From assembly GCA_041675145.1 (NCBI GenBank), contig JBAYUK010000001.1, positions 11,822-75,821 of the forward strand: 64,000 nt of DNA. The letters run 5' to 3'. This DNA is from Patescibacteria group bacterium. Lineage in GTDB: Bacteria; Patescibacteriota; JACPGU01. How positions within the stretch are numbered: the stretch's first letter is position 1; every line of letters begins with the position of its first letter. Below, in pieces: positions 3,764-32,032 of this stretch. The notes below the pieces were generated by a model. That model was not told the DNA's origin. It did no database searches and saw nothing but the letters and a program-made list of their open reading frames with translations. Both the position numbers and the translations under genes were made by a program.

Positions 3764-4861
3764 ATGACACAAGGGGAAGCAACTAAACTTGATGCTATCG
3801 CAGCATTCCAAATGAAGGATGCGCATTTTACCAAATTTGCGCGTGATTTGATTTCTCATCTGAAGGAAAAGCAACAGAAGGTGCTTATGAAGCGTTTTGG
3901 TCTCTCGGGACGCAAGCGTGTAACACTTGATGCTATCGGACGAGAGTTTGGTGTTACTCGTGAACGAGTACGCCAGATTGAAGCTGCTTCTATTACGAAA
4001 CTCAAAAAAATCGCAAAGCTCGAGCACAATCAGGGAACATTTGACCGTATCGTAAAAATCCTTGAAGCTCATGGTGGAGCAATGACTGAGGAATCTTTTG
4101 TAAACTCTCTTATTTATGACTTGGATGACAAGCGCATGGATGAGATGAAAAAGATGATCGGTTTTATTCTTCTTCTTTCAGAGGATGTACATGAAATCCC
4201 TGAAAACGATCATACTCGTGCAGGTTTTGCCTTGAAGAAGTACCACCCAACGATGGTAGCCGACCTTGCGCGTGCCTACACTGAAATTTTAGAATCTCGT
4301 CGTGAAGTGATGGGTGACGAAATCCTTATGCAGGAGATTCTAACTCATAAGGTACATGCGAAGTATGTAAAAGACATCACGCCACAGCTCCTACAGTCGG
4401 TAATCGGCCTCTCACGCCTCATTCACACCCATGATGATGGTAAGAAGGGTCTTGTAACCTGGCCATGGGTTAAGCCTCGTACAATCCGTGACAAGATATT
4501 CTATGTCTTGTCTAAGTCTGGCGAGCCAATGCATTTCTCAGATATCGCAACTGCTATTGAACAGCTTCCGTTTGATAACAAGTCAGTGACGGTTCAGACG
4601 GTTCACAACGAACTGATCTCAGATAACCGTTTTGTCCTAGTAGGACGCGGTCTGTACGGCCTTTCTCACTGGGGATTTGAACCAGGAACGGTTGAGGATG
4701 TGATTGCGAAGATTATGGAAAGCCACGGTACGCCACTTGACCAGAACACACTCGTTGAAGAGGTACTTAAGAAAAAGAAGGTTAAAAAAGCCACAATCTT
4801 GATAAATCTTCAGAGTTCAAAGAAATTCAAAAAAACTAAAGAAGGCTATATATTCGCCTAA
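3764..4861 (+). CDS. Sigma-70 region-4 (HTH) domain protein with an unknown C-terminal domain
   Basis: The N-terminal 'LMKRFGLSGRKRVTLDAIGREFGVTRERVRQIEAASITKLKK' is a canonical sigma-70 region 4.2 HTH. There is no region 2, and the remaining ~280 aa are unassigned. Confidence 0.6.
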   Translation: MTQGEATKLDAIAAFQMKDAHFTKFARDLISHLKEKQQKVLMKRFGLSGRKRVTLDAIGREFGVTRERVRQIEAASITKLKKIAKLEHNQGTFDRIVKILEAHGGAMTEESFVNSLIYDLDDKRMDEMKKMIGFILLLSEDVHEIPENDHTRAGFALKKYHPTMVADLARAYTEILESRREVMGDEILMQEILTHKVHAKYVKDITPQLLQSVIGLSRLIHTHDDGKKGLVTWPWVKPRTIRDKIFYVLSKSGEPMHFSDIATAIEQLPFDNKSVTVQTVHNELISDNRFVLVGRGLYGLSHWGFEPGTVEDVIAKIMESHGTPLDQNTLVEEVLKKKKVKKATILINLQSSKKFKKTKEGYIFA

Positions 4862-4997: not shown

Positions 4998-7832
4998 TTG
5001 TATATAATGGCAGACTTCTCTCCTGAAACGTTCTATATGTCGCTTGGTCAGCTGATCTTCTGGATCATCTTTTTTGGTGGCATCTATTTCACCTTCAAGC
5101 TGTTTGCAGCAGCATACTCAAAACGACGCAAAAGGTTTTGGTTGGTGAAGCAGAAATACACTACCTTACTTATTCAGGTGCCGCGTAACAACGAGAAGGG
5201 CCCCCAGTCTGCACAGTTTTTCTTTGCCTCACTCCATGGTATTTACAAGAATGCCAAAGAACGCCTTCAAGAAGGGTCTTTCCAGGAACATATTAGTTTC
5301 GAGATTGTCTCTATCGCGAAATACATTCGCTTCTATATCCATGTCCCGGAGCACCTCAAAGACTTTATTGAGGGACAGCTCTATGCTCAGTATCCCAATG
5401 TTGAGATCAAGCAGGTAGAGGACTATACCTTAACGAAAAGACCAGACGGCCTACACTTTGCAGGAACAGAGCTTGTGCTATCGAAAAAGGACTACTACCC
5501 AATAAATACCTTCCAGAACTTTGAAGTCGACCCGCTGGCGGGAATTACGGGAGTACTAGCTCAAGTTGAAGACGGGGAGCAGATTTGGGCACAGGTTCTT
5601 GCTCGTCCAATCGGCGACTCATGGCAGAAGGGAGCGTTTGCGCATATTTCTCAACTCAAGAGTGGTAAAAAATTCGCCATTTCAGGTAATGGCCTTATAC
5701 CAAAAGCATTTAGTTTTCTGGTGATACTTTTAAAGGCTCTTTTTACTCCACCAACTGATAGTAAGGCTGCACCACCCAAGCTCCCAGGGCCTGTAGAGCA
5801 GGCTATTAAGGCAATTGAAGAAAAGTCTACCAAGCTTGGGTACGAGATTGTGATTCGTATTATGTTCTTATCTAAAAAAGAACCTGAGGCAATGAAGCTC
5901 AAACTCCAGTCTATTGCTGGTGCGTTCAAGCAGTTTAATGCCTCGAACTTAAACGGTTTTGCCTATAAGGGGATATCTCTGGATGACCCAGAGTTTCTAA
6001 ACTCATTTCAGACTCGCAACTTTGAGAAAAAAGGCTTTATTTTAAACATTGAAGAACTCGCTTCTGTGTACCACTTGCCAACCGTCTCGGTTGAAACCCC
6101 AAGTATTGTCTGGGCAGGAAGCAAAAAGGGTGAGCCACCTGCAACGCTGCCTATAGAGGGTGTGGTAGGTCCAGATATTCTAACGGTCTTTGGTCGTACC
6201 AACTTCCGTGGTGAAACGGTTAAGTTTGGTATGAAGTTAAATGACCGCCGTCGTCACATGTATATTGTAGGTCAAACCGGTACGGGTAAATCTACCATGA
6301 TTGAAAACATGGCAATTGACGATATCCGAGAAGGCCGTGGTTTGGCTATTTTGGATCCACACGGATCACTGATTGACAACATCATGAAATATATCCCGGA
6401 TCATCGTATCGATGATGTTGTTATCTTTAACCCAGGAGATAAAGAACACTCAGTTGGTTTCAATTTACTTGAAAGTATCAACGACGAGCAACGCGAGATC
6501 GTGGCTTCAGGTATTATGAGTATTTTCAAAAAGATCTGGGAGAATGTGTGGTCTGCTCGTATGGAATACATCATGAAGAATATCATTCTGGCTTTGATGG
6601 AAACACCAGGATCTACCTTCCTGGGGGCAACTAAAATGTTGATTAATAAGGATTACCGTAAATATATTGTAGATAATGTCACTGACCCATTAGTTAAAGA
6701 ATACTGGGTGGATGAGTTTGAAGGACAGGTAAAAAATAACGCTAAATTTATTACGGAGGCAGTTGCCCCGATTCAAAATAAGATCGGACAGTTCTTGGCA
6801 GTGCCATCGGTGCGTTCTATTGTGGGACAAGGGAAAAGTACCATAGATATCAAAGACATCATGGATAACAAGAAGATCTTCTTGATCAAGATCTCGAAAG
6901 GAGAAATCGGAGAAGATAACATGCGTCTTCTTGGAGCGATGATCATCACCAAGATTCAGTTAACCGCGATGGCTCGTGCTGGTATTCCTGAAGACCAGTT
7001 GTCTGACTTCTTTCTTTATGTAGACGAGTTCCAGAACTTTGCTACCTCATCATTTGCAGACATTCTTTCAGAGGCTCGTAAGTACCGTTTGAGTCTAATT
7101 ATTGCGCACCAGTTCATGGCGCAGATGACCGACGACATCCGCGAGGCGGTGGTAGGTAACGTTGGTACCGCTATTGCGTTTCGTGTAGGAGCAAACGATC
7201 CTCCGCTTCTCGTGCGTCTTTTCGCACCTGTCTTTGATGAGAGCGATCTAGTTAATTTAAGCAACTACCATATTTATGTGAAGCTTCTTGTAGATGGACA
7301 GGTCAACTTGCCGTTCTCAGCAACTACTCTTGCTCGTGAAGAAAGACAGGAGACGAATAATGTAGAGAAAATCATTGCACTCTCTCGCTCAAAGTACACC
7401 AAGCCTCGCTCTGAGGTAGAGCAGGATATTCTTACCTGGAGTACCAGTATGTCGGATGTTAAGAATACTCCAAAGGTAGGTAACGGCGAGATGGGGGAAA
7501 CTATAGCGGTAGCTGCTGATGGCACTATTGAAGTTATTCCAGCGAAGCCCAAGATAGCGTACCGTGAACTCAAAGATAAAAAGGGTGGGATCTGGTACTT
7601 GAGAAAAAAGAAAGACGCAGCAGGGGAGGGAGAAGAAGTGCAAAACACTATACCACCTGAAAAGAATGCAACTCAGCAAGAGGTGACAGACGCCAACGAG
7701 AATATACAGGAAGTAGAAATAGCGCCGCACGAAGTAGCGGAACGAGAAATTCATGATGATCTTAAGGATCTAGACTTCGGTTCTAAAAAAGATACTGGCG
7801 AGATCAAAATTGGGCAGGAGATAGAGCTATAA
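4998..7832 (+). CDS. Membrane-anchored TrwB/TraD/VirD4-superfamily P-loop ATPase (type IV coupling-protein-like), paralog A
   Basis: 944 aa. One N-terminal TM (LIFWIIFFGGIYFTFKLF). A ~400-aa N-terminal domain precedes 'MYIVGQTGTGKSTM...AILDPHGSLID...VVIFNPGDKEHSVGFNLLE', which parallels R388 TrwB 'GATGTGKS...VIVDPNGD...IILNP'. Walker B-like 'LYVDEFQNF' and an acidic C-terminal tail. Confidence 0.6.
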   Translation: MYIMADFSPETFYMSLGQLIFWIIFFGGIYFTFKLFAAAYSKRRKRFWLVKQKYTTLLIQVPRNNEKGPQSAQFFFASLHGIYKNAKERLQEGSFQEHISFEIVSIAKYIRFYIHVPEHLKDFIEGQLYAQYPNVEIKQVEDYTLTKRPDGLHFAGTELVLSKKDYYPINTFQNFEVDPLAGITGVLAQVEDGEQIWAQVLARPIGDSWQKGAFAHISQLKSGKKFAISGNGLIPKAFSFLVILLKALFTPPTDSKAAPPKLPGPVEQAIKAIEEKSTKLGYEIVIRIMFLSKKEPEAMKLKLQSIAGAFKQFNASNLNGFAYKGISLDDPEFLNSFQTRNFEKKGFILNIEELASVYHLPTVSVETPSIVWAGSKKGEPPATLPIEGVVGPDILTVFGRTNFRGETVKFGMKLNDRRRHMYIVGQTGTGKSTMIENMAIDDIREGRGLAILDPHGSLIDNIMKYIPDHRIDDVVIFNPGDKEHSVGFNLLESINDEQREIVASGIMSIFKKIWENVWSARMEYIMKNIILALMETPGSTFLGATKMLINKDYRKYIVDNVTDPLVKEYWVDEFEGQVKNNAKFITEAVAPIQNKIGQFLAVPSVRSIVGQGKSTIDIKDIMDNKKIFLIKISKGEIGEDNMRLLGAMIITKIQLTAMARAGIPEDQLSDFFLYVDEFQNFATSSFADILSEARKYRLSLIIAHQFMAQMTDDIREAVVGNVGTAIAFRVGANDPPLLVRLFAPVFDESDLVNLSNYHIYVKLLVDGQVNLPFSATTLAREERQETNNVEKIIALSRSKYTKPRSEVEQDILTWSTSMSDVKNTPKVGNGEMGETIAVAADGTIEVIPAKPKIAYRELKDKKGGIWYLRKKKDAAGEGEEVQNTIPPEKNATQQEVTDANENIQEVEIAPHEVAEREIHDDLKDLDFGSKKDTGEIKIGQEIEL

Positions 7833-7868
7833 AACAGCAGACAGTGCTATATGGGATAGATGAAAAAA

Positions 7869-7897
7869 TACAGAGACACTCCCTCTGTATTTTTTGT
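7869..7897 (+). terminator. Rho-independent terminator
   Basis: Hairpin acagag-acactcc-ctctgt followed by a T7 run. Confidence 0.6.
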
Positions 7898-7991: not shown

Positions 7992-8315
7992 ATGGCCGAC
8001 GCACATAAACGAGCGCTCGAAAAAGCGCTTGCTATGCTTCGGGAAATAAACCCCAAGCATCCACTACTTAAACTACATTACGATCCACTTACTTTAGTGG
8101 ACGAGAAAGGCTACATGGATCAGGAAACATTGTCAGCTAAGAGAAAGAAACTAGCTGATCATCTCTGGCCATGGCCAAAAGAAGAGGGGACTGCTTGGAG
8201 TAACCTCAAGCCTGAGGTACTCTACATTATGCTGGATACTCTCTACTACTCAGCAGTAATGCGAGCAATCACAGAAAGTAAAATAACACAACCTACGCGG
8301 CAGAAGATGCCGTAA
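7992..8315 (+). CDS. Hypothetical protein (107 aa)
   Basis: ORF with GGAAGGGGA upstream of the ATG; no known family. Confidence 0.5.
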   Translation: MADAHKRALEKALAMLREINPKHPLLKLHYDPLTLVDEKGYMDQETLSAKRKKLADHLWPWPKEEGTAWSNLKPEVLYIMLDTLYYSAVMRAITESKITQPTRQKMP

Positions 8316-8342
8316 TTCAAAAAAAGGAAGAAGGAAAGAACG

Positions 8343-9263
8343 ATGATTGAACAATTCAACGAACACCGGTGGCTTATTGCTAGTTTTCTCTTAGCCATGG
8401 TCGTGATGTATGATGTGGTTCTTAAGCTAAGTAAGCTCTCAAAGACCCTAAAGGCCGCAAGGGTACAAAGGGTAATTGATAAAGAGCGTAGGAGACAGTA
8501 TGACTCAAGGATGAATAGGCTTCACATGAAAAGAAGTGAAAATGAGAGAATGATGCAGAGCACTACGCCTTCCGAGATAAGGAAAATACTGATAAATCTA
8601 GATATTCCTAATCTACAGGTTATCAGCCCGCGTGACGAAGACAATGAGATGTTGTTTAGTAGCATCTTCGCAGAAGGCTACCTGGAAGTAGTTGGAAGGA
8701 CCGATGCAGATATTTTACAAGGTTTACTTCCAACAAATGAATACCGCTTGCATCCCACGATGGTTGCAACACGGAAAGCGACTTTTCCTTCCACAGAAGG
8801 GGTGTTTACTACTCTTGAGTTTAAGATGGGTAACCAGCCGAAAGGGATTGCGCTAAGCTTCATGCGGGAAGAGTTTGAGGGTCACGAGTATCTGCGGGTT
8901 CTGATCTTATCCTTTTTCTTCTCCGAGCTATACGAATTGTACGAGCTTGGAGATGGCAAAAGGATTCAGGAGGTGTTCAAGCAGATTGAAGAACGCTTTA
9001 TGTTCGCGCTACGCATCACTCCGACTGCTGGTGGACAAAAGGATATCAATCAGTACTACCGCGACATGTGGTTTCCACTGGCAACCCGTTGGCTGACTCG
9101 TCTTATCAAGAAGTCTAGCCCCATTGCTGTTGAGCAGTATGCAACTGACATCTGGATTGCGATGATGGACAAGATGAATGGGGCGCGTGATCATGTCTGG
9201 GATAAAAGCGTCTCAGCACACTATACTGGGGACATAGTTCCCAGTTATGAAACTCTGAAATGA
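8343..9263 (+). CDS. Hypothetical membrane-anchored protein, paralog 1 of a 3-member family
   Basis: 306 aa with a single N-terminal TM (WLIASFLLAMVVMYDVVL). Shares 'EFEGHEYLRVLILSFFF', 'ITPTAGG...WFPLATRWL' and 'DIWIAMMDKMNG' blocks with the proteins at 9265 and 11561. Confidence 0.55.
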   Translation: MIEQFNEHRWLIASFLLAMVVMYDVVLKLSKLSKTLKAARVQRVIDKERRRQYDSRMNRLHMKRSENERMMQSTTPSEIRKILINLDIPNLQVISPRDEDNEMLFSSIFAEGYLEVVGRTDADILQGLLPTNEYRLHPTMVATRKATFPSTEGVFTTLEFKMGNQPKGIALSFMREEFEGHEYLRVLILSFFFSELYELYELGDGKRIQEVFKQIEERFMFALRITPTAGGQKDINQYYRDMWFPLATRWLTRLIKKSSPIAVEQYATDIWIAMMDKMNGARDHVWDKSVSAHYTGDIVPSYETLK

Positions 9264-9264
9264 A

Positions 9265-10221
9265 ATGAGGGTTGATATGGAACAAGCACAACAACTACTT
9301 CATCAGTGGATGGAGTCTAAAGACTTTTGGTGGCAGTCGATTCTTCTGACATTCCTCATCGCAGCAACCTTCATCATGTGGTCACTTGCTTTTGGCGCAT
9401 TTCTTGCTGCCAGAAGAAAGAGGAAAGACAAAAAAAGAACAAAAGAGGCAATATACCAGACCTACCAGGAGACCTTTCGAAGGATGGAAAACGACAAAGA
9501 AAAGATCACTGAGGAAAAGGGGAAGGAAGCTATGGATGTTTTTGTTTCCTACCTTGATCTCTTCAGGATCAAGGGCATCTTTATTGCGCCATCCAATCGA
9601 CCTTTCTGGGAAGCATGGAAACATGGAACTGTTGAAATTGTTCGCAGTTATGACCAGGAAAAGATTCAAAACGGAGCTGTTCCTGAAGTGAAGTACATCC
9701 ATGATTCTCAAAAGCTGGTCTCGATTAGGGCTGAAGTAGGAGAAGAGGATAATGTGACCATTGCATTTCCAGTAAGTCACAACAAGAGAATAGAGCTCAC
9801 CTTTGTTCCTCAGGAGCTTGAATTTCATGAGTACCTCAGGATTATGATGCTTGCTCTGTTCTACCGCTTTTTCACAAGCTGCGAAAAATATACCGTGAAA
9901 AGGCTCAACGATGACCATGTCAAAAGCGTGATGGACAGGATTGAAGACAAGCTCTGTTACACCATCACAATCGCCCCTGTAGCAGGACATGTAGAGATTG
10001 AAAAACTGAAGCTTTTTTACGCGAAGACCTGGTGGCCCGAGGTGAGAGCTGCACTAGAGAGCATGAGCGGACAAAGCTGGGCAGACAGGCACATCGAAGA
10101 ATACGAACATATTGCCATCTACCTCTGGGTTCGGCTCATGAACTTCCATTATGGAGAAGATGATCGAAACCGCTGGAGACTGGTGGCCTTTTCTCATCTC
10201 ATGAGGGGATGGAATGTGTAG
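9265..10221 (+). CDS. Hypothetical membrane-anchored protein, paralog 2
   Basis: 318 aa. N-terminal TM (ILLTFLIAATFIMWSLAFGAFL), then 'ELEFHEYLRIMMLALFY', 'IAPVAGH...WWPEVRAAL' and 'IAIYLWVRLMNFHYG'. Start abuts the stop of paralog 1. Confidence 0.55.
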   Translation: MRVDMEQAQQLLHQWMESKDFWWQSILLTFLIAATFIMWSLAFGAFLAARRKRKDKKRTKEAIYQTYQETFRRMENDKEKITEEKGKEAMDVFVSYLDLFRIKGIFIAPSNRPFWEAWKHGTVEIVRSYDQEKIQNGAVPEVKYIHDSQKLVSIRAEVGEEDNVTIAFPVSHNKRIELTFVPQELEFHEYLRIMMLALFYRFFTSCEKYTVKRLNDDHVKSVMDRIEDKLCYTITIAPVAGHVEIEKLKLFYAKTWWPEVRAALESMSGQSWADRHIEEYEHIAIYLWVRLMNFHYGEDDRNRWRLVAFSHLMRGWNV

Positions 10222-10246
10222 CTCCCTCATATACAAACAACGACTG

Positions 10247-10282
10247 ACCGCCCGGTGGAACAATCCACCGAGGCGGTTTTTT
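10247..10282 (+). terminator. Rho-independent terminator
   Basis: ccgcccggtggaacaatccaccgaggcgg hairpin plus T6. Same core as the terminator at 12931. Confidence 0.55.
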
Positions 10283-10430
10283 ATTATACATTAACAAGTA
10301 GGGTCTATTCTTTGATTATTATCGCCATAAGCAATAAAAAGTTATATAATGTAGATATCATCAATCGGATGTGAACCTTTACATCATGCGTTAGATATAT
10401 GCCTTGAAATTCAAAAGAGAGGAGGGGTTT

Positions 10431-11150
10431 ATGACTCCTAATAAACAAGACCCTGTTCCTGAAAGATTAGGGAAGAGGGAAGTATGGAAGCAGGTTATCC
10501 AGCCATTTAAAGAAGACCCTGAAAACATGAGGGGCAGGATAGATTGTGGATACCTGCTTGAGGAATGTGTGGTTGAGCAACTGCGTGGGGCAACAAGACA
10601 GGGGAGTAAGCTTCCTATGTTTCACGAAGTGGTACGACATGACCCTAACTCATTTGAGGACAGGCAAGGTAAGGATATTACTCTGACATGGTTTGACGAG
10701 GATGGGCTCAAAATGAAGACATCCATCGGCATTACCATGAATAAAAGTAGTTTCAAAAGGTTTCAAAAGAAACACCCTGGGGTGCAGATATTTCACTTTC
10801 CAATCGAAGTTTCGTTTGAGACTATGGAGCGCGAAATCCTTGAATACTGCTGCCAGGAGAGTCTGCGTTACCGACAGGTAATTAAGATGATTTCTGGCAA
10901 GGAGAATGCCGACATTTGCTACATAGAGGATGCAGAGCCAAAAAAGATTCGGGAGTTTATCCTGGACAAAACACCTCTTGTGGTCTTCAAGTGCACAACA
11001 GGTCTTATGTACCGAGCACGACTAGTGGAGATGCTATCGGTTATGCCGACTGGCATGGCGCTAGTCTACTTAGGTAGAAAAGACTCAGAGATTAACTTTC
11101 TCGACTGGGAGAGTTGCCTGAGAGCTTTTTTTGTCGTAGATCAGGAATAA
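10431..11150 (+). CDS. Hypothetical cytoplasmic protein
   Basis: ORF 10404..11150. Preferred start is ATG 10431 (MTPNKQ) with GAGAGGAGGGG upstream. No family assignment. Confidence 0.5.
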   Translation: MTPNKQDPVPERLGKREVWKQVIQPFKEDPENMRGRIDCGYLLEECVVEQLRGATRQGSKLPMFHEVVRHDPNSFEDRQGKDITLTWFDEDGLKMKTSIGITMNKSSFKRFQKKHPGVQIFHFPIEVSFETMEREILEYCCQESLRYRQVIKMISGKENADICYIEDAEPKKIREFILDKTPLVVFKCTTGLMYRARLVEMLSVMPTGMALVYLGRKDSEINFLDWESCLRAFFVVDQE

Positions 11151-11198
11151 ACCCAGACGGCAGGGTATGCCGAATACACAAGGAAAAAGGAGACGGAA

Positions 11199-11540
11199 AT
11201 GAACGGAGAATCACTTCAATTGCTGGATATGGAGAAACACATCAAAGAGGAGCTGGCCACGCATGTTCGGGTTTACTTTCGAACCAGCGCAGCAATCCGG
11301 ATGGCTAACCTTGCAGAGGCCACAAGGGTGGCTACATACCTTAATGACGCCGTGCTTGAGGAGATTCAAACGCGGATCATCTGTGGCGGTGAGTCGACCG
11401 GGATGACCTCAAATGAGATTCAAAGGCGGCAGATTGCCATCACGACGATTCTTAAAGGTCTTACACCACAATCTGGCAACGAAAATCTGGATAGCGACAG
11501 AGTGAAGTCAGTTGTGGATGAACTGTATGTCCTGTATTAA
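11199..11540 (+). CDS. Hypothetical protein (113 aa)
   Basis: ORF with AAGGAGACGG upstream; no family. Confidence 0.45.
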   Translation: MNGESLQLLDMEKHIKEELATHVRVYFRTSAAIRMANLAEATRVATYLNDAVLEEIQTRIICGGESTGMTSNEIQRRQIAITTILKGLTPQSGNENLDSDRVKSVVDELYVLY

Positions 11541-11560
11541 ACAGGGGAAAGGAGTCTTTC

Positions 11561-12526
11561 ATGGACTTTTGGAATACACCACTCCCACCATGGGGCATGG
11601 TTATTATCGTAATCGCACTGATTGCGGTTGTGACCAGCCTCATCTACTGGGCAAAACATGCGTTGGATGTACGTATCCAACGCAACCTCGTCAAAGAGCG
11701 TGAGAAGGCGGTAACCCCTCCTTCCAAGTCTCCGGAAGAAATCGAGTACAACCGGATGTGCGAATCTCTGGTCGCGGCTGCCGAGAGAACAAGATCAGAG
11801 CAAGAGGAAAGTCTCTCCCAGTCTTCGGTGCGAACAGTGCAGGCTCACTTTGAGGCTTGCGGGATCGAGGATCTCCTGGTCTACCGAGACTCGATAATCA
11901 AACACGACCCCGCTCCACTCAGTCTCGCATGGGGGGAGGGAAGAGTATCTTTTGACAGACCACGCTTCGATGACAGCAATGAGCATGGAGAAAAGTATCT
12001 CCCGAATGTCTACACCCAATATTTCGTGCAAGACCGTGATGCTTTCACGCCGAGCGTGTACCAGTTTGTAAAACCCACGAAAGAACACGCAATCAAGATT
12101 CAGTTCAGGATTCTCGAAGGGAATAGCCGAGACAGCCTTTCAAGAAGGTTCTTCGTAAACCTGTTCTGTTCTCCAAAGGACGACTTCACCACTCCGGAAT
12201 ATCTCGCGCTTCAGCTCTACGCCAGCGGCAAATACAGCGTCGAAGTTGTAGCTGCTGCCACCCATGAGCTGATGGCGCTTATCGAGAAAGCTCCGGCTGA
12301 AGTCGAGGACGCCTACAAGCTTGCTCTGTACTTTGACACCGTTTGGTTGCGGGCAGTGGCCGAGATGCTAGGCGGGTGGTACTACCGGGAAAAGGGTTTC
12401 CCCAGACATGAAGCAGTGAAGCTTGCCTGCGAGTTATGGATCAGTCTTATGAGTCACATGCACGGGGATGATCTGCGTTGGACCTTGGCTACCCTGACCA
12501 CAGTGGAGCGAACAAAGGAGCGCTAA
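11561..12526 (+). CDS. Hypothetical membrane-anchored protein, paralog 3
   Basis: 321 aa. N-terminal TM (MVIIVIALIAVVTSLIYW), then 'TPEYLALQLYASG', 'APAEVEDAYKLALYFDTVWLRAVAEML' and 'ACELWISLMSHMHGDDLRW', co-linear with paralogs 1 and 2. Confidence 0.55.
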   Translation: MDFWNTPLPPWGMVIIVIALIAVVTSLIYWAKHALDVRIQRNLVKEREKAVTPPSKSPEEIEYNRMCESLVAAAERTRSEQEESLSQSSVRTVQAHFEACGIEDLLVYRDSIIKHDPAPLSLAWGEGRVSFDRPRFDDSNEHGEKYLPNVYTQYFVQDRDAFTPSVYQFVKPTKEHAIKIQFRILEGNSRDSLSRRFFVNLFCSPKDDFTTPEYLALQLYASGKYSVEVVAAATHELMALIEKAPAEVEDAYKLALYFDTVWLRAVAEMLGGWYYREKGFPRHEAVKLACELWISLMSHMHGDDLRWTLATLTTVERTKER

Positions 12527-12560
12527 TAACCAATAGCGTCTCTCAACACAACATGCCGTA

Positions 12561-12911
12561 ATGGTAGAAAGGAAGTATATGGAAAGCCTACTGTTGGTGG
12601 CCCTGATCATTCTTCTGGCAACTCGTGGCTTTCGGGCGACATTTAGCCATGATGGCCAGGAGAGTGATCCTTCGCTTTGCGAACACTACTTTGGCGTCTT
12701 GGACAATGCTCCGGTTCCTCTTGGATACAACGTGTGCGAGTTGCGTGCATTTGGCCAGAAAGTCCGTGTTGCTTTTAAGGGATCAACGGATCTTATGAAA
12801 GGAGAAGGAAAGTTGGTCTTTGATGTGCCTAATGAAACTAGGCTTCCTTTTCCTCCAGGTCGCCTCGTTGTATGGAGACAAGAAGGACTGTGGGTATTTC
12901 GCCCCTTTTAA
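12561..12911 (+). CDS. Small secreted or anchored hypothetical protein
   Basis: 116 aa with N-terminal hydrophobic segment LLLVALIILLATRGF. Confidence 0.45.
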   Translation: MVERKYMESLLLVALIILLATRGFRATFSHDGQESDPSLCEHYFGVLDNAPVPLGYNVCELRAFGQKVRVAFKGSTDLMKGEGKLVFDVPNETRLPFPPGRLVVWRQEGLWVFRPF

Positions 12912-12930
12912 GGGGTTTCTGATAGGGTTT

Positions 12931-12967
12931 AACCCTGCCCGGTGGAGCAATCTACCGGGTATTTTTA
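12931..12967 (+). terminator. Rho-independent terminator
   Basis: ccctgcccggtggagcaatctaccgggt hairpin followed by atttttat. Paralogous to the 10247 terminator. Confidence 0.5.
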
Positions 12968-13518
12968 TGTCAAAATGGTACTATTGACACGAATAGGGTA
13001 TTAGTGTTTTAGTATGGATTTTCTAGGATGTGATAAAAAAAGGGCATAGAGGCAGGTAGGGTAGGGAAATGAAGGGAGTTATATGAAAAACAAATATAAA
13101 AAATTTATATGGAATATTTTTTGAGACAGAAGTTTTGAGGGGATAGTCCACAGTTACCAGAAGGGTGTGGATAACATATGTCGCACAATGTATCTTATGC
13201 GACATAAAGCAGGGGTTTCTGGGGGAAAGCTGGGGCTTGCATGTGGTACGGATTTTGGTGTGTATTTTGCATTGGAATTACTCTTAAAAAAAATAAATTT
13301 ATATTTTTGTATTTCATACTTCTCTCTCAAACTATCTCTCTTTTTTTATAATCATACTTCCCCACCGATTTCTAAATTTTGAGTCTAGGCACCCATAGGT
13401 CCACTTCTTCTTTTTTTAGACAAAATAATAGCGCAGTTTTTAGGCTGCGCCCCGCGAATGCGGATCAAATAGTTCCCCCTACGACGAGACGGAGGCTACC
13501 GTCTCAATTAAAGCCGTA

Positions 13519-13959
13519 CTATGGAGTTTGGATGGTGGTTACTGGGTATTCTTCCAGCAAGAACAGTCCCTGGTTGAGTGTTATAAGACAGGTTTTCCCA
13601 TGGTCGTACTTATTGATATGTGTCTCGATAAGCTCAGTTAGTCTTGGGACAGATATTTCCATGCACTCTACCCAGACCCGAGGCTTGTAGTCGCCCTCTG
13701 CTGTGATGATTGTTTCAACAGTAGTCCTTGGTATGTTGCGCTGAAAAATTTCAAGCCTGGTTGTGGCAGTGATGTACTTGCGATTTAAAACCGACAAGAA
13801 TAGGAAATCTAGTTCCTTAGCCGCTGTCAGTTTGAAGTGATCGATTGCAGACTGGATCAGGTCTTTTGCATTGAATACATCAGATTCTTCCTGAATCACC
13901 AGGTCTCCAGCATCGTTGATGCTGGTAACGAATTTTGATCTTGGTTCCATAGCTACCAC
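13519..13959 (-). CDS. Hypothetical protein (146 aa)
   Basis: Clean ORF with no family. Confidence 0.5.
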   Translation of the reverse strand: MVAMEPRSKFVTSINDAGDLVIQEESDVFNAKDLIQSAIDHFKLTAAKELDFLFLSVLNRKYITATTRLEIFQRNIPRTTVETIITAEGDYKPRVWVECMEISVPRLTELIETHINKYDHGKTCLITLNQGLFLLEEYPVTTIQTP

Positions 13960-14156
13960 CTTTCGTTGTTTTTGTGGGTTGTCTCAAAGCATGGCTCAAG
14001 CATATTCCCCGGTGTTTTTCGGTATATGCTGTATACCATAAATATCACAAGCGGAATGGAAATTCCTGCAAGAAAAATAAGGAACAACGCACAAACAATA
14101 ACTAACCAAAAACATCCTGGACTGGTCTTTCTCTGGGTTTGGTATCCATGTCGCAC
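13953..14156 (-). CDS. Possible small 2-TM membrane protein with GTG start
   Basis: 67 aa with two hydrophobic helices. Start overlaps the ATGTCGCACAAT motif and the ORF overlaps the downstream gene by 7 nt. Confidence 0.3.
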   Translation of the reverse strand: MRHGYQTQRKTSPGCFWLVIVCALFLIFLAGISIPLVIFMVYSIYRKTPGNMLEPCFETTHKNNERW

Positions 14157-14272
14157 AATATTGCTCCTTCTCTGTGTTGTTTAGGTTCGCTTAAGCGTAC
14201 TGCTTGTGGTTATTGTATCATAGGTACTATAAAAGCGCTATTTCTAGCGCTTTTATAGTGTTTCTTGTCTAA

Positions 14273-14827
14273 TTATTCAGCAAATCCCATAGCGGCAGAC
14301 TCGATTGCTGCCCAGTTGGTTTCTTCACCAGCTGGTAGTGCAATGGTTACCTGGTCGCCAGGAGAGATTTTATAATAGGTGACGGATGCGAGGAGAACCT
14401 TGTAGGTCTTCCCTTCTGCCATTACCTTATAATTGCCGTCTTCATATACAAGAGAACCTACCACACGACGGCGATCAATTTGCTTGATCTGTTTGTACTT
14501 AAACGTACCGTCGTCTTCAATAGTGAGTTTGAGAGTATCTCCGGGTACAAATTTGGATTTACTGGCATAATTAGCCGGCACAGGATATTTTTTCTTATCC
14601 GATCCAATCATCATTTCGCCGTCAAAAATACCTTCGATTACTTTCCCTTCGGTAATAATCGAGAGACCTTCAGCTCGAGAGCCAAGATCTGCACTTTTGA
14701 GTTTGCGTCCCTTCGTAGGGATACCTGAGAGTTCTGACAATAGTTCACGAGCTGAGCGCAATTGCGCTTCAGCTGATTCGATCAAATGACGCACAGTGTC
14801 GACACTCTGTTGTTCATCTCGTAGCAT
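14273..14827 (-). CDS. Hypothetical protein (184 aa)
   Basis: Coiled-coil-like N-terminus; no family. Confidence 0.5.
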   Translation of the reverse strand: MLRDEQQSVDTVRHLIESAEAQLRSARELLSELSGIPTKGRKLKSADLGSRAEGLSIITEGKVIEGIFDGEMMIGSDKKKYPVPANYASKSKFVPGDTLKLTIEDDGTFKYKQIKQIDRRRVVGSLVYEDGNYKVMAEGKTYKVLLASVTYYKISPGDQVTIALPAGEETNWAAIESAAMGFAE

Positions 14828-14981: not shown

Positions 14982-15698
14982 TTATATCTGATTAGGTACT
15001 GTCGGCGTTGGTTCATTGGTAGGCAATGTAGTACCGCTTCCTGTGCCAGTATTATTTACATCTGGATTTTGTCTGAAGTTTGGATCTGTGACTGGAGACC
15101 CAAGATTAACTCCGCCTGTAGCTGGTGTTACAGGAGAACCAATATCAACTCCAGTAGTACCGGGTAGATGCTGGTCGACTGGCGTTCCACCATCTCCACT
15201 GGGTGTTGGAGTAGGAGCTGGGTTACTTGTCGCAGGAGTTGCGCCGTTTAAGATCAGGTTGTTGGTATATGCCACTAGCGCATAGGACATCATTGCAATA
15301 ACTCCCCCAATAATGGCACCGGAGAGAGCCTTCTTCGCGGTCTCAACTTTCTTTGAGTCCCCTGCTGATGACGTGTACATGAGCCCGGATACAATAATCA
15401 TGAGTACCATAATGAGCGATGAGATTCCCAGAAGGTAGCCAAGAATTTTCTGTGCAAAACACAAGATAAGTGCCCTTCCATCGCCGTCGTTGGCTGCAGT
15501 TGCACACTTCAAGTCGTGTTGGTCTGCAGAAGTAGCGTTTTTCAATACTTCGTCAGGAGTAGCTGGGGTATCTGCACTAATATGTGCTTGTTCTGGTACT
15601 GAACTGAAACCAACAGCGCTCGCATATACCGGTGTAATGCCGAAGTTTACTCCAAGTAGTAGTGCTGTAAACGAAAGGATAAGTATGTGTTTTTTCAT
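14982..15698 (-). CDS. Secreted membrane protein with VirB2/TrbC-pilin-like topology and a Pro/Thr/Gly-rich tail
   Basis: Signal peptide MKKHILILSFTALLLGVNFGITPVYASA. A Cys pair is followed by two hydrophobic helices (ILGYLLGISSLIMVLMIIVSGLMY, IIGGVIAMMSYALVAYT) separated by a ~20-aa loop, then an ~80-aa PT-rich low-complexity tail. Lies 8 nt downstream of ATPase paralog B. Confidence 0.4.
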   Translation of the reverse strand: MKKHILILSFTALLLGVNFGITPVYASAVGFSSVPEQAHISADTPATPDEVLKNATSADQHDLKCATAANDGDGRALILCFAQKILGYLLGISSLIMVLMIIVSGLMYTSSAGDSKKVETAKKALSGAIIGGVIAMMSYALVAYTNNLILNGATPATSNPAPTPTPSGDGGTPVDQHLPGTTGVDIGSPVTPATGGVNLGSPVTDPNFRQNPDVNNTGTGSGTTLPTNEPTPTVPNQI

Positions 15699-15706: not shown

Positions 15707-18211
15707 TTAGCCGGCTCGTAGTCTAATTTCTTCTTCGACAATATCACGGTCGCGTCCGTATTTCAATCGAGATAATTGTGTAATTGCCTCAACCAGTTTC
15801 TGGTTTGGTGGTGGCACTTTACTCATATCTTTAAAGTGGTTCAGAGAAAAGGCACGCAAGCTGGTGTTGTTTGCCAGAAGCTTAATATATGAGTTGAAAG
15901 CCTCAACATTGATCAGGTCGTTAACTGAGAATACCGGATCATAGACCTTAGCCATCTCCTCTGCGTCATCTACGCCGATTCGAAATGAGACCATAGTACC
16001 GGCATTACCAAACACAGCGTCATGTATTTGGGTGTTATTATTCTGTGTGAGCTGTCCAATGTACTGATGAGCAACCGTTAGAGCCAGGCCGTACTTGCGT
16101 GCCTCAGACAGGATGTCAGCCACTGCTTTGGTTGAGAAGTTCTGGAACTCGTCCATATATAAGTAAAAGGTCTTACGATCGGCTTCCTTCATATCTGCAC
16201 GACTCATAGCGGCAAGGTAAATCTTAGAGACCATGATAAGGCCTAGAAGAGACATATTCTCCTCCCCTATTCGGCCCTTCGATAAGTTTAAGAGGAGGAT
16301 CTTTTGGTTGTCCATAATCTCACGCACATTAAATGCGCTTTTTTGTTGGGCAATGATCGGGCGCATAATGTCGTTGGCTATAAACTTCGTCATCTTTGAA
16401 GTTACATATGGTACGACATTGGCAAGAGCTGCCTCCCCTCCTGCTTTCTCTGCTTCTTTAAGCCAGTAGTTTTTGATAATAGGGTTTTGACACTTTGAGA
16501 TTTTGTATGCTCTGAAATCTTCGTCGGAAAGTACTTTTGGAATTTCCATTAGGGTCGATCCACTTTCTACATCTTCCATAACGAGTAAGGCGGCGTTTCT
16601 GAAATATTGCTCAAACATCGGTCCACCAGTAGACTTTAAGTCGTAGAGTTTATCAAAGACATTCATAAGTTCTGAAACTGCCAGAGACCGTTCCTCGGGA
16701 CTATTAAATTCAAGTAAGTTGAGTCCCATTGGTCTCTCATAGTCACCGGGGTTGAAGATAATAACATCTTCTGCCCGTTCGCGTGGGATTTGCTGTAGTA
16801 TGCGGTCAATAGATTCGCCGTGCGGATCGATATAGCAAACTCCCCTGCCTGCTCGAATATCTTGCACACACAGATCCTCAATAAAGGTAGATTTACCCGT
16901 ACCAGACTTACCAATTACATACATATGGCGCATCCGATCCTCTGGTCTCATATAGACTGGAGTGCGCACACCACGAAAAATATTAGTACCAAGGTATAGA
17001 CCCTCTTTAGGTACTTCTGGTGGTGCCGGAGCTCGTTTCGAGGTGAGCCATTTAATGCTTGGCGTTTCTGTATTGCGATTTGGGAGGTGGAATAGGCTCG
17101 CTAACTCATCGCAGTTTAAGATGGACTTTGAGCCGTCATATGGCATTGCTCTGAAGATAAAGTCCTGGGTAATCTGTGTATCTGATCTGCCTTTTACTCG
17201 AATGAGCTTGTTCCCGGTTGGGCTATTGAAGACCGTAAAGGAACTGAGGATATTAGCTAGATGCATCTTCGAGTTGGCAACTTCAGGGCTCGCCACTACT
17301 ACGCGAATAACGGTTTCAAAGCCAACCAAAGAAGCCTTCTCCCCTATCATCTTTATCTTTTGTTCGGTTATAGGCGAGAGAGTTTTTTGTTTTTCTTCCT
17401 TATATTCCTCCGTCTTAGAGGCAGCAGAAGCTAAAGTCTTGCCGAAGCTCAAACTACCCTCCCCTATTTTTTTCCATGTGAGGTCTCCTCCTGAAATCTT
17501 CTTCCCTTCTTGGAGCTGCTTGATATGGAATTCAGATCCCTTATGCCAGGTATTTTTAGCCGGTCGAATCAAAAACTGAATGGATGCTGCTTCCCCACTG
17601 GCTAGCTTTGAAAGTGACGACGTAATGGTATTAAGTGTATCTGTCTCAAATTCCTTATATGTTTTAATCGGCAACGAAACAACATCAGAAAGCGTAAGCT
17701 CTGCTGTCTGAACTTTGGTGGTGTCTGAGAAAATATTGTACCTTTCTACTTCTTCCATGTAGGCATCCGGATAAAAGCTATGGATTTGTTTTTCAACGAG
17801 ATCGACGAGTTCCTGTGGTACGGCAACATAGAAGGTAATTACACCGTCAATTGAGGCTATTTCAAATGAAACATGCGCCCCTTTCTTATACCATGACTTG
17901 TTCAGCTGAGTGTCCGCTATAGAATAGAGCGATGAAAACATCTGAGAGGCACGAGCAACCAAGTCTTTTGGATCTTTTTTACTCTCCTCTTCATCACGAC
18001 TCGATTTTTTTGGTACTAAGATCTGGAGCAGTACCATGTTGACTGAGCGAGAAATCTTCCCCTTCTCATACCGGTACTCTTGCAGGATCTGGTAGAGCAA
18101 GACTGCACAGAGTACAAAAAGCCCTGCTCCGATTAAGGCATAAAAAAGAACCAACGGATTTATTCCCGCAGACCCAGCATCAAAACTTGTAGCATTGTAC
18201 GATACCGCCAT
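15707..18211 (-). CDS. Membrane-anchored TrwB/TraD/VirD4-superfamily P-loop ATPase, paralog B
   Basis: 834 aa. N-terminal TM. 'MYVIGKSGTGKSTFIEDLCVQDIRAGRGVCYIDPHGESIDRIL...VIIFNPGDYERPMGLNLLE' is co-linear with paralog A, the N-terminal domains are also similar, and 'LYMDEFQNF' is present. Confidence 0.6.
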   Translation of the reverse strand: MAVSYNATSFDAGSAGINPLVLFYALIGAGLFVLCAVLLYQILQEYRYEKGKISRSVNMVLLQILVPKKSSRDEEESKKDPKDLVARASQMFSSLYSIADTQLNKSWYKKGAHVSFEIASIDGVITFYVAVPQELVDLVEKQIHSFYPDAYMEEVERYNIFSDTTKVQTAELTLSDVVSLPIKTYKEFETDTLNTITSSLSKLASGEAASIQFLIRPAKNTWHKGSEFHIKQLQEGKKISGGDLTWKKIGEGSLSFGKTLASAASKTEEYKEEKQKTLSPITEQKIKMIGEKASLVGFETVIRVVVASPEVANSKMHLANILSSFTVFNSPTGNKLIRVKGRSDTQITQDFIFRAMPYDGSKSILNCDELASLFHLPNRNTETPSIKWLTSKRAPAPPEVPKEGLYLGTNIFRGVRTPVYMRPEDRMRHMYVIGKSGTGKSTFIEDLCVQDIRAGRGVCYIDPHGESIDRILQQIPRERAEDVIIFNPGDYERPMGLNLLEFNSPEERSLAVSELMNVFDKLYDLKSTGGPMFEQYFRNAALLVMEDVESGSTLMEIPKVLSDEDFRAYKISKCQNPIIKNYWLKEAEKAGGEAALANVVPYVTSKMTKFIANDIMRPIIAQQKSAFNVREIMDNQKILLLNLSKGRIGEENMSLLGLIMVSKIYLAAMSRADMKEADRKTFYLYMDEFQNFSTKAVADILSEARKYGLALTVAHQYIGQLTQNNNTQIHDAVFGNAGTMVSFRIGVDDAEEMAKVYDPVFSVNDLINVEAFNSYIKLLANNTSLRAFSLNHFKDMSKVPPPNQKLVEAITQLSRLKYGRDRDIVEEEIRLRAG

Positions 18212-18345: not shown

Positions 18346-18831
18346 ATGAAACGTATCGTATTTCTCCCAATTATGGTGCTGGCAGTCATAGTGCTTGTTG
18401 CACCAACCCCCTCTTCTGCAGATCAAGCAGAAAAGTTAGAAGGTTTTTTCATGCTCACTACCAACAACCAGTTAGGGCAAGCGTTTGAAAGAGCGTATGT
18501 GAAGCTTCATCGCGAAGGCAATCTCGTTGAAGAGTTGTGTGCTGAGGTGCTTGATCAACAGCCACAACCTCATAGCTCAAACACCCATGTGGCGACCTAC
18601 GATGTTATGCCAGTCATAACACTTCTCAAACTCACCAACGACGGCTTGTGCCCAAAGAACGGAATTGTTGTCTCAAAGTTGCGTTTTCGTAACAATAAGG
18701 CTTTGAGAATCAAAAAGAATATCTTTTACAGCCAGATGTCCCATGCCTGCATGTTTGCAGCTGACCCTGATATTCCTGAAAGTTGGAAGCCGGCAGCAGC
18801 AGCGCTGTGCAAGCGTCACCCAATGTATTAA
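18346..18831 (+). CDS. Secreted Cys-containing hypothetical protein
   Basis: Signal peptide MKRIVFLPIMVLAVIVLVAPTPSSA. Transcribed divergently from ATPase paralog B. Confidence 0.5.
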   Translation: MKRIVFLPIMVLAVIVLVAPTPSSADQAEKLEGFFMLTTNNQLGQAFERAYVKLHREGNLVEELCAEVLDQQPQPHSSNTHVATYDVMPVITLLKLTNDGLCPKNGIVVSKLRFRNNKALRIKKNIFYSQMSHACMFAADPDIPESWKPAAAALCKRHPMY

Positions 18832-18870
18832 CTCTCTCCGCACTATGCGCGTATCTCGTAAAAAACAAAG

Positions 18871-18896
18871 GCCACCCTCCGGGGTGGCTTTTTTTG
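18871..18896 (+). terminator. Rho-independent terminator
   Basis: gccaccctccggggtggc hairpin plus T7. Confidence 0.65.
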
Positions 18897-19053
18897 ATTT
18901 CCTTACTTGGTTTTCTCTTCTTATGTTTAAGCACATAAGAGAATAATATTGACATAATCTATGAATAATGTTATTATGCATAAAGGCATTCCAGGTATTA
19001 CGAGACTGATGTCGGTCACCGACACTGAACTCTGAGCCTACAGGAGGTATGCC

Positions 19054-19677
19054 ATGCACATTTCCATGAAGATTGGGCTTGAGCCCGGTCAACAAACCAA
19101 CGACTTGCTGAAAAGGATCGGCAAAGCACAAGTGAGCAAGGTGGAGGCTGGAGATATTGTTATCCAGGAATCTGAACTTTTTTCTCCACTTCTTAAGCCA
19201 TGGTTGGATGAAGTTCCTGTCGAACTGACCAAATGGGTGACCCTCAAGTTTGATATCCTGAGCTACGGAGGAGGCGGTGATCGCTTCATCCAAGGCATCC
19301 ATTACTTTGATGATGGAGCTACCATACTTCAAGTCGGGATGATCAAAGAAGTAGTCCAGGGTTCGAGCACTTACAAGCTGTGCTGTTCGCTCAGGTCTTC
19401 TTCAGTTCATTCAGCTCGAAACACTTTTGCTGCATTCGTTGCGGACCCTCACAGCTTTACCCCATCCAAGGAGTGGCCAAAGCTGGATGTTGTTCCTGGG
19501 ATTGCAAATGACCAGCTGACAGTTTTCCTTCAAGATCAGGGTCTTGCCGCCAGGGTTATCCACGCGTGGGCCTTACGAGCCATTCCTGGCTACGCCTGGT
19601 TCCAAAATATCCGCTACAAGTGGATCAAGCTTCGGGGCGGGAATTACGATAATCTCCCCATTCCCCTCTCCTCCTAA
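19054..19677 (+). CDS. Hypothetical protein (207 aa)
   Basis: AGGAGG 6 nt upstream of the ATG. Preferred over the overlapping antisense ORF 18673..19332. Confidence 0.5.
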   Translation: MHISMKIGLEPGQQTNDLLKRIGKAQVSKVEAGDIVIQESELFSPLLKPWLDEVPVELTKWVTLKFDILSYGGGGDRFIQGIHYFDDGATILQVGMIKEVVQGSSTYKLCCSLRSSSVHSARNTFAAFVADPHSFTPSKEWPKLDVVPGIANDQLTVFLQDQGLAARVIHAWALRAIPGYAWFQNIRYKWIKLRGGNYDNLPIPLSS

Positions 19678-19697
19678 ACAGGATCTCATGAAAACTA

Positions 19698-19729
19698 GAA
19701 CCACCCTCCGGGGTGGTTCTTTGTTTTTG
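19698..19729 (+). terminator. Rho-independent terminator
   Basis: agaaccaccctccggggtggttct hairpin plus a T-run. Same ccaccctccggggtgg core as the 18871 terminator. Confidence 0.65.
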
Positions 19730-19783
19730 TCTCATTTGATTCCTCTTCTTTGGGTGGTATAATAGAGGTAAATTTACCATTTA

Positions 19784-20554
19784 TTGACTGCAATGCCAAG
19801 AATTCTTGCTACGACTCTGTATGATCCGCGCGGTTTTTACCTTCCGATTATCACGAGATGGTTTCCACAAGTGCGCCAACACTTCGATAAGGTTATTGTA
19901 GTGGGAAATGTAAATATGTTTCCTGAGACCAAAGAGTTTTTGCTCTCACATGGTGTTGAGCTTCTAACACTTTCCGAGAATAACATTGGGCATGTGTATC
20001 GTCATGCACTCCATGCTGCTAGTGTATATGGCGATGTTTTATACTGTGACTTAGATCGCGCACTGCACTGGGTGGCATTTTACCCTGAAGAATTTAAAGA
20101 TATGCTAGAGTCAGTTGAAAAGCACGACTGGGTTGTGCTTGAACGATCTAAAAGAGCTTTTAGTTCCCATCATAAGCAGCTAAAACAAACTGAACCTATC
20201 TTTAATGGGGTACTTGATCTCATCACATCGTGGGGTGTGCATGATTATCTATCTGGAGCTTTCTTTATAAAAAAGTCATTAATAAGCTTTTTGACTAATG
20301 ACCTTGAAGGCACAGATCAGTCGTGGTGGGGTGAATACTACTTATCTCTATATAAAAAGAACACGAAACCAGAATTCAAGGCATATGAGGGACTTGAATG
20401 GGAGACCCCGGATCGCTATCAGGTAGGGATAGAAGCAGCTGGCGGATTTGACCAGTGGAAGCAAAATTTAGAGAACAGTGGTCGTGAGTGGGAGAATAGA
20501 GTTAACTTTCTTCAGCAGTTTATCGATGGAGCACTCAAGATTTATCGCAAATAA
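19784..20554 (+). CDS. Hypothetical protein (256 aa)
   Basis: Clean ORF with no recognisable motifs. Confidence 0.5.
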   Translation: MTAMPRILATTLYDPRGFYLPIITRWFPQVRQHFDKVIVVGNVNMFPETKEFLLSHGVELLTLSENNIGHVYRHALHAASVYGDVLYCDLDRALHWVAFYPEEFKDMLESVEKHDWVVLERSKRAFSSHHKQLKQTEPIFNGVLDLITSWGVHDYLSGAFFIKKSLISFLTNDLEGTDQSWWGEYYLSLYKKNTKPEFKAYEGLEWETPDRYQVGIEAAGGFDQWKQNLENSGREWENRVNFLQQFIDGALKIYRK

Positions 20555-28643: not shown

Positions 28644-28858
28644 GTATCTCCTTTGCGCATTAAAAAATCTGCGTTATCCGCAGACATAATCAAAAGTCGA
28701 CCTGTGACTCTTTTGATTCCTGCACAGGATTTATCCCTTTCGGGTACCGGTGGTCTGGGGAAACTATGTGGTAATTATAACGCATGAATGGGGTATTAGT
28801 CAATATCTAGTAGAGCACTCCCCTCCTATGGTATAGTCCGGGTATACGCACCTGAATA
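28644..28858 (-). promoter_or_regulatory. 5' leader of rplJ-rplL, possible L10 autoregulatory leader
   Basis: A ~215-nt untranslated region upstream of rplJ with several stem-loops, for example gataacgcagatt and caggaatcaaaagagtcacagg. Assigned by position only. Confidence 0.3.
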
Positions 28859-28922
28859 TTGCAGACACACAAAAAACTACTGGGCACTACGCTTACTACA
28901 AGGAGGCTTGCTTTGAATAATG

Positions 28923-29440: not shown

Positions 29441-29457
29441 GCGTTTCACCGAAATGG

Positions 29458-29488
29458 GACCCGCACACTTTGTGTTGCGGGTTTTTTG
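29458..29488 (+). terminator. Rho-independent terminator
   Basis: acccgcacactttgtgttgcgggt plus T6. Confidence 0.65.
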
Positions 29489-29600
29489 TTGTGTAAATTT
29501 GTGTATACCAAGCTAAAATGTTATACTATATTTGCTAACAAAGCACAGTGAACCTGTAAAACTAGCACACAAAAATTTCTTCGCCTAAGGAGGGCACAAC

Positions 29601-30533: not shown

Positions 30534-30542
30534 GGAGGCTCT

Positions 30543-31574: not shown

Positions 31575-31589
31575 GAAAACAATTAACAG

Positions 31590-32005: not shown

Positions 32006-32032
32006 ACACAATCGTCACACCCAGAAAGGGGC

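Follow-up and report, generated by a model that had tools for sequence, protein, structure and literature searches.

We analyzed a 64,000-nucleotide stretch of an uncultured Patescibacteria genome (contig JBAYUK010000001.1; the whole stretch is called the window here) and focused on three open reading frames (ORFs) in it, paralog A (8343-9263), paralog B (9265-10221), and paralog C (11561-12526), which lie among genes resembling those of type IV secretion systems (T4SSs). We lean toward reading A, B, and C as genuine genes of a cassette of orphans that is specific to this genome and occupies a variable slot between convergent, conserved T4SS-like operons. Judged from their sequences, the three products are most likely membrane-tethered cytoplasmic binding proteins of a strain-specific accessory cassette. 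On this reading, the cassette would not be a structural T4SS subunit, and its proximity to T4SS genes would more likely reflect tolerance of insertions than a functional link.

The three genes and the parts of their products referred to below are as follows (aa, amino acids; TM, transmembrane).

paralog A, 8343-9263, + strand: 306 aa; TM helix at residues 11-29 (8373-8429), then a basic juxtamembrane helix
shared C-terminal module of A, about residues 205-306 (8955-9260), + strand
paralog B, 9265-10221, + strand: 318 aa; TM helix at residues 26-44 (9340-9396), then AARRKRKDKKRTK
shared C-terminal module of B, from about residue 217, + strand
paralog C, 11561-12526, + strand: 321 aa; TM helix at residues 13-31 (11597-11653)
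middle region of C, residues 89-228: no detectable similarity to A or B
C-terminal module of C, residues 229-321 (12245-12523), + strand: homologous to that of A and B

An earlier reading of this DNA, the first-pass annotation, had listed ORFs of 306, 318, and 321 aa, each with a single N-terminal TM helix. Both observations hold: the three ORFs are present on the + strand, and each product has exactly one hydrophobic segment of at least 19 residues, near the N terminus (Kyte-Doolittle 2.15 to 2.66). Shine-Dalgarno (SD)-like motifs lie 9 to 12 nucleotides (nt) 5' of all seven starts in the cassette, those of A, B, and C included. The start of paralog A at 8343 is favored over M62 by an SD-like AAGGA at -12, and the gene calls of two other assemblies also give 306 aa; one database copy begins at M62 and hence has no TM helix. 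With ATG 9277 as its start, the one that has the SD-like site, paralog B would have 314 aa. An antisense ORF of 202 aa (9382-9990, - strand) lies wholly inside gene B. Because the paralogy of A and B backs the + frame, and A has no comparable antisense ORF, this is most likely a shadow ORF.

A and B are 25% identical across 196 residues (BLASTP, E=3e-14), and their Smith-Waterman score of 162 compares with a maximum of 67 among 1,000 shuffles. A single base separates the stop of A from the start of B. A and B are clearly full-length paralogs, and their arrangement is consistent with a tandem duplication. Paralog C, as far as sequence comparison indicates, has in common with them only the anchor layout and a C-terminal helical module of about 90 residues. 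The match of B to C (E=2e-5; Smith-Waterman 78, shuffle maximum 62) was confined to the last ~70 residues, and hhalign aligned A+B with C at E=3.9e-4 across 74 C-terminal columns. On the last 93 residues of C, the A+B profile scored 23.2 bits, and the best of 1,000 shuffles scored 7.6. On residues 89-228 of C, the same profile scored -1.5 bits, which 401 of 1,000 shuffles equaled or bettered. Of the three pairings, A-B and B-C are significant, and only A with C by themselves falls above the threshold of significance (E=0.016; equaled by 54 of 1,000 shuffles). The similarity is not of low complexity.

The first-pass annotation had described a tandem family that arose by duplication. That description fits A and B, which are one base apart. 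It does not fit C as a tandem member, since C sits 1.3 kb downstream of the pair, beyond two unrelated genes; for C, duplication extends to the shared C-terminal module only. The motif strings on which the description was based all occur literally in the proteins. The significant alignment takes in the P(T/V)AG/PAEVE, W(F/W)P/WLRAV, and C-terminal aromatic blocks, whereas the HEYLR/PEYLA block has no statistical support in C. Conserved positions in the shared module are W, M, and G. Because only these are conserved and no polar residues of catalytic type are kept, the module may be a non-enzymatic docking or oligomerization element.

The cassette and its variable slot

On the 5' side, the cassette is preceded by genes for SecD, SecF, a DUF1290 protein, a Sigma70_r4+HARE-HTH protein, and a 944-aa ATPase resembling type IV coupling proteins (T4CPs). 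On its 3' side, on the - strand, are genes for a 184-aa protein (p184), a T4SS pilin, and an 834-aa VirB4/T4CP-like ATPase. Beyond the VirB4-like gene lie TGT, an EPSP-synthase-family protein, ribosomal proteins L10 and L12, thymidylate synthase, FtsZ, and other housekeeping genes. The locus is chromosomal and not part of a plasmid or phage.

Using the T4CP-like protein, we retrieved six related loci (L001 to L006). The closest are L001 to L003, in which this protein is 63 to 64% identical; in L005 and L006 it is 48 to 50% identical. L004 equals L002 in length, ORF coordinates, and scores. Gene order was compared in the loci with downstream sequence (L001 and L002/L004), and there it is the order of the window: sigma-like, T4CP-like, slot, p184, pilin, VirB4-like. 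The slot of L001 holds two small unrelated ORFs, and that of L002 holds a DAHP-synthase-like gene and a gene for an 826-aa repeat protein. L005 and L006 have no slot: the VirB4-like gene, the p184 homolog, and the T4CP-like gene directly adjoin one another there, all on one strand. The slot between the convergent T4SS-like operons is a variable site in this clade. A phmmer search with all cassette proteins found no homolog in any of the six loci. The first-pass annotation had proposed looking for the triplet next to T4CP-like ATPases in other genomes; A, B, and C are absent from L001 to L006, whose ATPases are 48 to 64% identical to those here. Thus, the triplet does not belong to the conserved T4SS-like genes, since relatives with the same ATPases are without it and two of them have no slot at all.

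Searches of wider collections agree in treating the cassette proteins as orphans. A profile of the soluble domains of A and B, run against 1.84e9 representative proteins, returned only A, B, and two marginal matches (P0003 and P0004), long repetitive proteins that we judged spurious. B, C, and p248 (another cassette protein) each matched only themselves among 5.8e9 clusters. They are 100% identical to WC045_00115, WC045_00130, and WC045_00120, respectively, each named "hypothetical protein" in a metagenome-assembled genome labeled "Patescibacteria group bacterium." No cassette protein matched a family in Pfam, NCBIfam, PHROGs, or PADLOC-DB, which bears out the earlier statement that A, B, and C contain no known domain; the TM region of paralog A gave a sub-threshold match to a PHROG of unknown function (E=0.005). 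There was no match to the family among PDB sequences, phage records, plasmid records, or IMG/VR, and phmmer and jackhmmer found no further copies in the 64-kb window and loci L001 to L003. At the level of sequence, the family is new and falls in no described family, but nothing found here is evidence of new biology.

The cassette spans 7992-12961 (about 5 kb) and consists of seven + strand orphan genes in two predicted transcription units. Unit 1 comprises p107, A, and B, and unit 2 comprises p248, p113, C, and p116. Its features other than A, B, and C are listed here.

terminator-like hairpin, 7863-7895, + strand: 13-bp stem and T-run, 3' of the T4CP-like gene, parting that gene from the cassette
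promoter-like site P1, 7906-7934, + strand: TTTACT-17-TATAAT, 10 of 12 matches, before unit 1; a consensus match only
p107, 7992-8315, + strand: soluble orphan, first gene of unit 1; SD-like AAGGA at -12
intrinsic terminator at the end of unit 1, 10247-10283, + strand: hairpin and T-run
core of the unit 1 terminator, 10250-10270 (GCCCGGTGGAACAATCCACCG), + strand: recurs at 12937-12957
promoter-like site P2, 10322-10350, + strand: TCGCCA-17-TATAAT, before unit 2; a consensus match only
p248, 10404-11150, + strand: soluble orphan, unrelated to A, B, and C; probable start at ATG 10431 (239 aa)
p113, 11199-11540, + strand: soluble orphan, unrelated to p107
p116, 12561-12911, + strand: small orphan; probable start at ATG 12579 (110 aa)
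intrinsic terminator at the end of unit 2, 12936-12961, + strand: 11-bp stem and T-run, with the 21-nt core found in unit 1

The hairpin cores that end the two units are identical at 19 of 21 bases, and the core has two matches in 64 kb where none is expected. Because this 21-nt core is common to both unit ends and occurs nowhere else in the window, the near-identical terminators point to duplication of a unit end. A repeated two-gene cassette, made of a small soluble gene and a bitopic gene, was considered and rejected: there is no similarity between p107 and p113 or between p248 and A. The N-terminal hydrophobic segment of p116 has a charge bias opposite to that of A, B, and C, and p116 is predicted to face outward. 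Scans of the region for Rfam families, tRNAs, and repeats found no RNA gene, tRNA, or flanking integration-site repeat. The DNA is identical in three independent assemblies, with the same gene calls; the two assemblies other than ours are 100% identical to the window and so offer no population variation for a selection test.

The pooled codon usage of the cassette is mildly atypical (Karlin B 0.213, compared with 0.140 +/- 0.023 for host pools), and AGG makes up 27% of its Arg codons, compared with 9% in host genes. GC content and tetranucleotide usage are within the range of the window. In sliding blocks, a housekeeping block at 28.8-36.5 kb is as deviant as the cassette, and composition therefore does not settle the origin of the cassette; the signal for foreign origin is weak and not decisive. 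An argument for foreign origin from relative synonymous codon usage (r=0.29 against 0.95) was rejected as an overstatement, given that the housekeeping block is equal and the tetranucleotide distance unremarkable. The block itself (28800-36500) contains thymidylate synthase, dihydrofolate reductase (DHFR), dCMP-deaminase-domain, and PHP-domain genes and has a higher GC3 and a Karlin B of 0.22 to 0.24. Its DHFR ORF is 343 aa long, with the DHFR domain only at residues 9-152.

Membrane orientation and the VirB8 question

The positive-inside rule states that the K/R-rich flank of a TM helix lies on the cytoplasmic side. We counted K+R in the 15 residues on each side of the helix. The N-side and C-side counts were 1 versus 5 in A, 1 versus 8 in B, and 0 versus 4 in C; ahead of the helix is a short tail that is neutral or acidic, and beyond it the sequence is strongly basic. 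VirB8-like controls gave 4 versus 3 (PrgL), 2 versus 2 (PrgD), and 4 versus 1 (TrwG). The two ATPases of the locus, whose P-loop domains must be cytoplasmic, gave 0 versus 6 and 0 versus 3, the same sign as A, B, and C. Since the charge bias opposes that of the VirB8 proteins and agrees with that of the ATPases beside them, the large domain of A, B, and C probably faces the cytoplasm and not the outside. The extracytoplasmic domain of ~30 kDa described in the first-pass annotation is thus predicted to lie on the other side of the membrane. A, B, and C would insert with the short N-terminal tail outside and a body of ~275 to 290 residues in the cytoplasm. The basic helix would tether this body to the inner face of the membrane, and the shared module would hold the divergent middle domains there.

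In two AlphaFold models, the beta elements come first and at least five helices come last. Their pLDDT values were 40 and 47, a poor quality that stems from the lack of alignment depth; within the shared C-terminal helical module, pLDDT reached 55 to 75. In the NTF2-like VirB8 fold, N-terminal helices pack on a C-terminal curved beta-sheet. The order of elements in the low-confidence models is the reverse of this. A Foldseek search with these models against PDB and BFVD found nothing significant, and the NTF2/VirB8 match for which the first-pass annotation had proposed searching did not appear.

VirB8 homologs are almost never detected in Patescibacteria, whose T4SS-like machine is reportedly essential to epibiotic growth (PMC12102498). 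A diverged replacement would therefore be expected somewhere, and A, B, and C are bitopic proteins of roughly fitting size between T4SS-like ATPase and pilin genes. Like VirB8/TrwG of the MPF_T type and PrgL/PrgD/TraM/TraH of the monoderm MPF_FATA type, they have one N-terminal TM helix and a soluble domain of some 20 to 30 kDa. Could they be highly diverged VirB8-like (PrgL/TraM-type) assembly factors, with an extracytoplasmic NTF2-like domain that scaffolds the channel? We find this hardly credible. Unlike those factors, A, B, and C have the opposite predicted orientation, which is that of the cytoplasmic ATPases, and their predicted helices are C-terminal in the domain. They show no sequence or profile similarity: an hhalign comparison of the A+B profile gave probabilities of 0.4% for PrgL, 0.5% for PrgD (pCF10), and 0.2% for TrwG (R388), and there was no match of A, B, or C to Pfam VirB8 (PF04335) at E<=0.1. 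Their genes are not kept with the T4SS, as none of the related loci in which the ATPases, the pilin, and p184 are conserved contains them, and a predicted terminator and a separate promoter-like site stand between the T4CP-like gene and the cassette. The resemblance to VirB8 suggested in the first-pass annotation is therefore unsupported, and we reject a VirB8-like identity on topology, sequence, conservation, and, weakly, fold.

Two other known systems were compared. Divergent tandem arrays of VirB2 (~25% identity) occur near virB4 in Patescibacteria (PMC12102498). As in those pilin arrays, A and B are ~25% identical, stand side by side near a T4SS, and are strain specific, which suggests diversification. 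Unlike the arrays, they have no pilin domain, are predicted to be cytoplasmic and not surface exposed, and occur in one genome only. In layout, A, B, and C are like the VirB4/T4CP-like ATPases of the locus itself, in which a short neutral or acidic tail, a TM helix, and a K/R cluster also precede a cytoplasmic body. In the ATPases, however, the TM helix and basic cluster lead into DUF8128, to which the soluble parts of A, B, and C have no homology. TrsD-like proteins are said to resemble the N terminus of VirB4. The possibility that A, B, and C are diverged copies of the N-terminal domain of the ATPases was rejected, as a nine-sequence profile gave hhalign probabilities of 0.6% against A+B and 0.2% against C.

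Neighboring genes

The protein p184 (14273-14827, - strand) is a conserved soluble protein of 180 to 186 aa that has no assigned family and always occurs with both T4SS-like ATPases. Its homologs are at 15150-15692 in L001, 17404-17964 in L002, 5852-6367 in L005, and 959-1408 in L006; in the last two, the gene lies directly between both ATPases. A weak PDB match (E=0.025) was to Streptococcus Esub1, which resembles a type I restriction S subunit. As a core accessory candidate of the T4SS-like system, p184 looks better than the A/B/C triplet.

The two ATPases (4998-7832, + strand, 944 aa; 15707-18211, - strand, 834 aa) are paralogous. Each has an N-terminal TM helix, an N-domain of ~380 aa (DUF8128 in precomputed annotation), and a TrwB/VirD4-type P-loop domain, and both score below every NCBIfam cut-off. 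Their genes converge here but run in the same direction in L005 and L006, a difference that implies an inversion in this clade. The pilin-like protein (14982-15698, - strand) has 238 aa, compared with 125 to 127 aa in L001 and L002; a Pro/Thr/Gly-rich C-terminal tail past the pilin core is part of the difference. Upstream of the T4CP-like gene, 3764-4861 (+ strand) encodes a 365-aa protein with only sigma-70 region 4 at the N terminus and a HARE-HTH/RNAP-delta-like domain at the C terminus. This sigma-like gene is kept directly 5' of the T4CP-like gene in all close relatives (8538-9671 in L001, 8727-9815 in L002, and 8636-9745 in L003).

Between the cassette and the - strand genes p146 and p67 lies an AT-rich stretch of ~560 nt (12962-13518) that has neither a convincing ORF nor an Rfam match; it contains the point, window position 13205, at which the Logan assembly of this DNA breaks off. 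The genes p146 (soluble) and p67 (67 aa, single TM helix) occupy 13519-14156 on the - strand and are two further orphans of the slot. A perfect palindrome of 15 bp (14226-14259) bounds them on one side and a terminator-like site (13451-13430) on the other. A second group of unassigned genes, for proteins of 161, 207, and 256 aa, lies between the VirB4-like gene and AlaE/TGT (18346-20554, + strand). The 161-aa protein has a signal-peptide-like N terminus, and the other two are soluble. None has a homolog in the related loci, where this interval differs as well.

Alternative explanations and the meaning of the cassette

Several observations weigh against the orphan-cassette reading or limit how far it can be taken. 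There is no positive evidence for any function of A, B, or C, and their topology follows from the positive-inside rule, not from experiment. The locus has only three or four close relatives, so turnover of the slot is poorly sampled, and the search for paralogs covered L001 to L003 and, of the 428-kb contig, the 64 kb of the window. The region has no more promoter-like matches than shuffled sequence has. The compositional deviation of the housekeeping block and the low pLDDT of the models count here as well. Finally, the cassette shares a strand with the T4CP-like gene and starts 160 nt after it, which makes a functional link possible.

That last point bears on a different reading, in which A, B, and C would be strain-specific, T4SS-coupled, membrane-tethered effectors or substrate adaptors, shown to the T4CP-like ATPase on its cytoplasmic face and diversified by duplication to match different hosts, in parallel with the variable VirB2 pilin arrays of Patescibacteria. 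Besides their position directly 3' of that gene, their domain, predicted to be cytoplasmic, would share a membrane face with the ATPase domains, the ~25% identity between paralogs is like that of the pilin paralogs (PMC12102498), and the content of the slot is strain specific and fast evolving. However, location is weak evidence, because the slot in relatives also holds plainly unrelated genes, such as the DAHP-synthase-like gene of L002; no analogous bitopic proteins are in the slots of L001 or L002. Transcription of the cassette is predicted to be separate, and the proteins show no known T4SS signal or domain. We therefore regard a T4SS-coupled role as quite unlikely. The C-terminal 30 residues have no marked charge bias. 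A bolder version, in which the paralogs are a new class of adaptors or cargo that dock at the T4CP-like ATPase through the C-terminal module and whose divergent middles are determinants of epibiotic host range, would be improbable.

An origin in a mobile element would also account for several features. The cassette may be a remnant or cargo of an unsampled Patescibacteria phage or plasmid, encoding membrane-anchored exclusion, abortive-infection, or immunity proteins, with an accidental link to the T4SS. All seven genes are orphans and one family has expanded, the codon usage is mildly atypical (as in the AGG share), the insertion sits between convergent operons, and one assembly breaks just past the cassette. 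We consider such an origin unlikely, as there is no integrase, transposase, tRNA, or flanking direct repeat, no match in PADLOC, PHROG, IMG/VR, phage, or plasmid collections, and no departure of GC or tetranucleotide usage from the range of the window. At the other extreme, A, B, and C might not be functional genes but chance ORFs or decaying pseudogenes, since homologs were found nowhere searched and the AlphaFold confidence is low. This is highly improbable for three ORFs of more than 300 codons in one orientation with properly spaced SD-like motifs. The similarity of the A and B proteins is far beyond that of shuffled controls, the gene spacing is operon-like, and the terminators fall exactly at the unit ends.

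Under the orphan-cassette reading, the cassette would be a fast-evolving, strain-specific accessory unit in conflict, defense, or host interaction. A candidate for the missing VirB8 would have mattered, because the machine is reportedly essential for epibiotic growth and VirB8 is almost never detected; A, B, and C can be set aside. The charge-bias count, controlled with the ATPases of the same locus, is a cheap screen for other bitopic candidates called "VirB8-like." Strain-specific orphan cassettes in insertion-tolerant gaps are common in these genomes, and the slot that separates the two ATPase operons could serve as a place to look for genes of host interaction.

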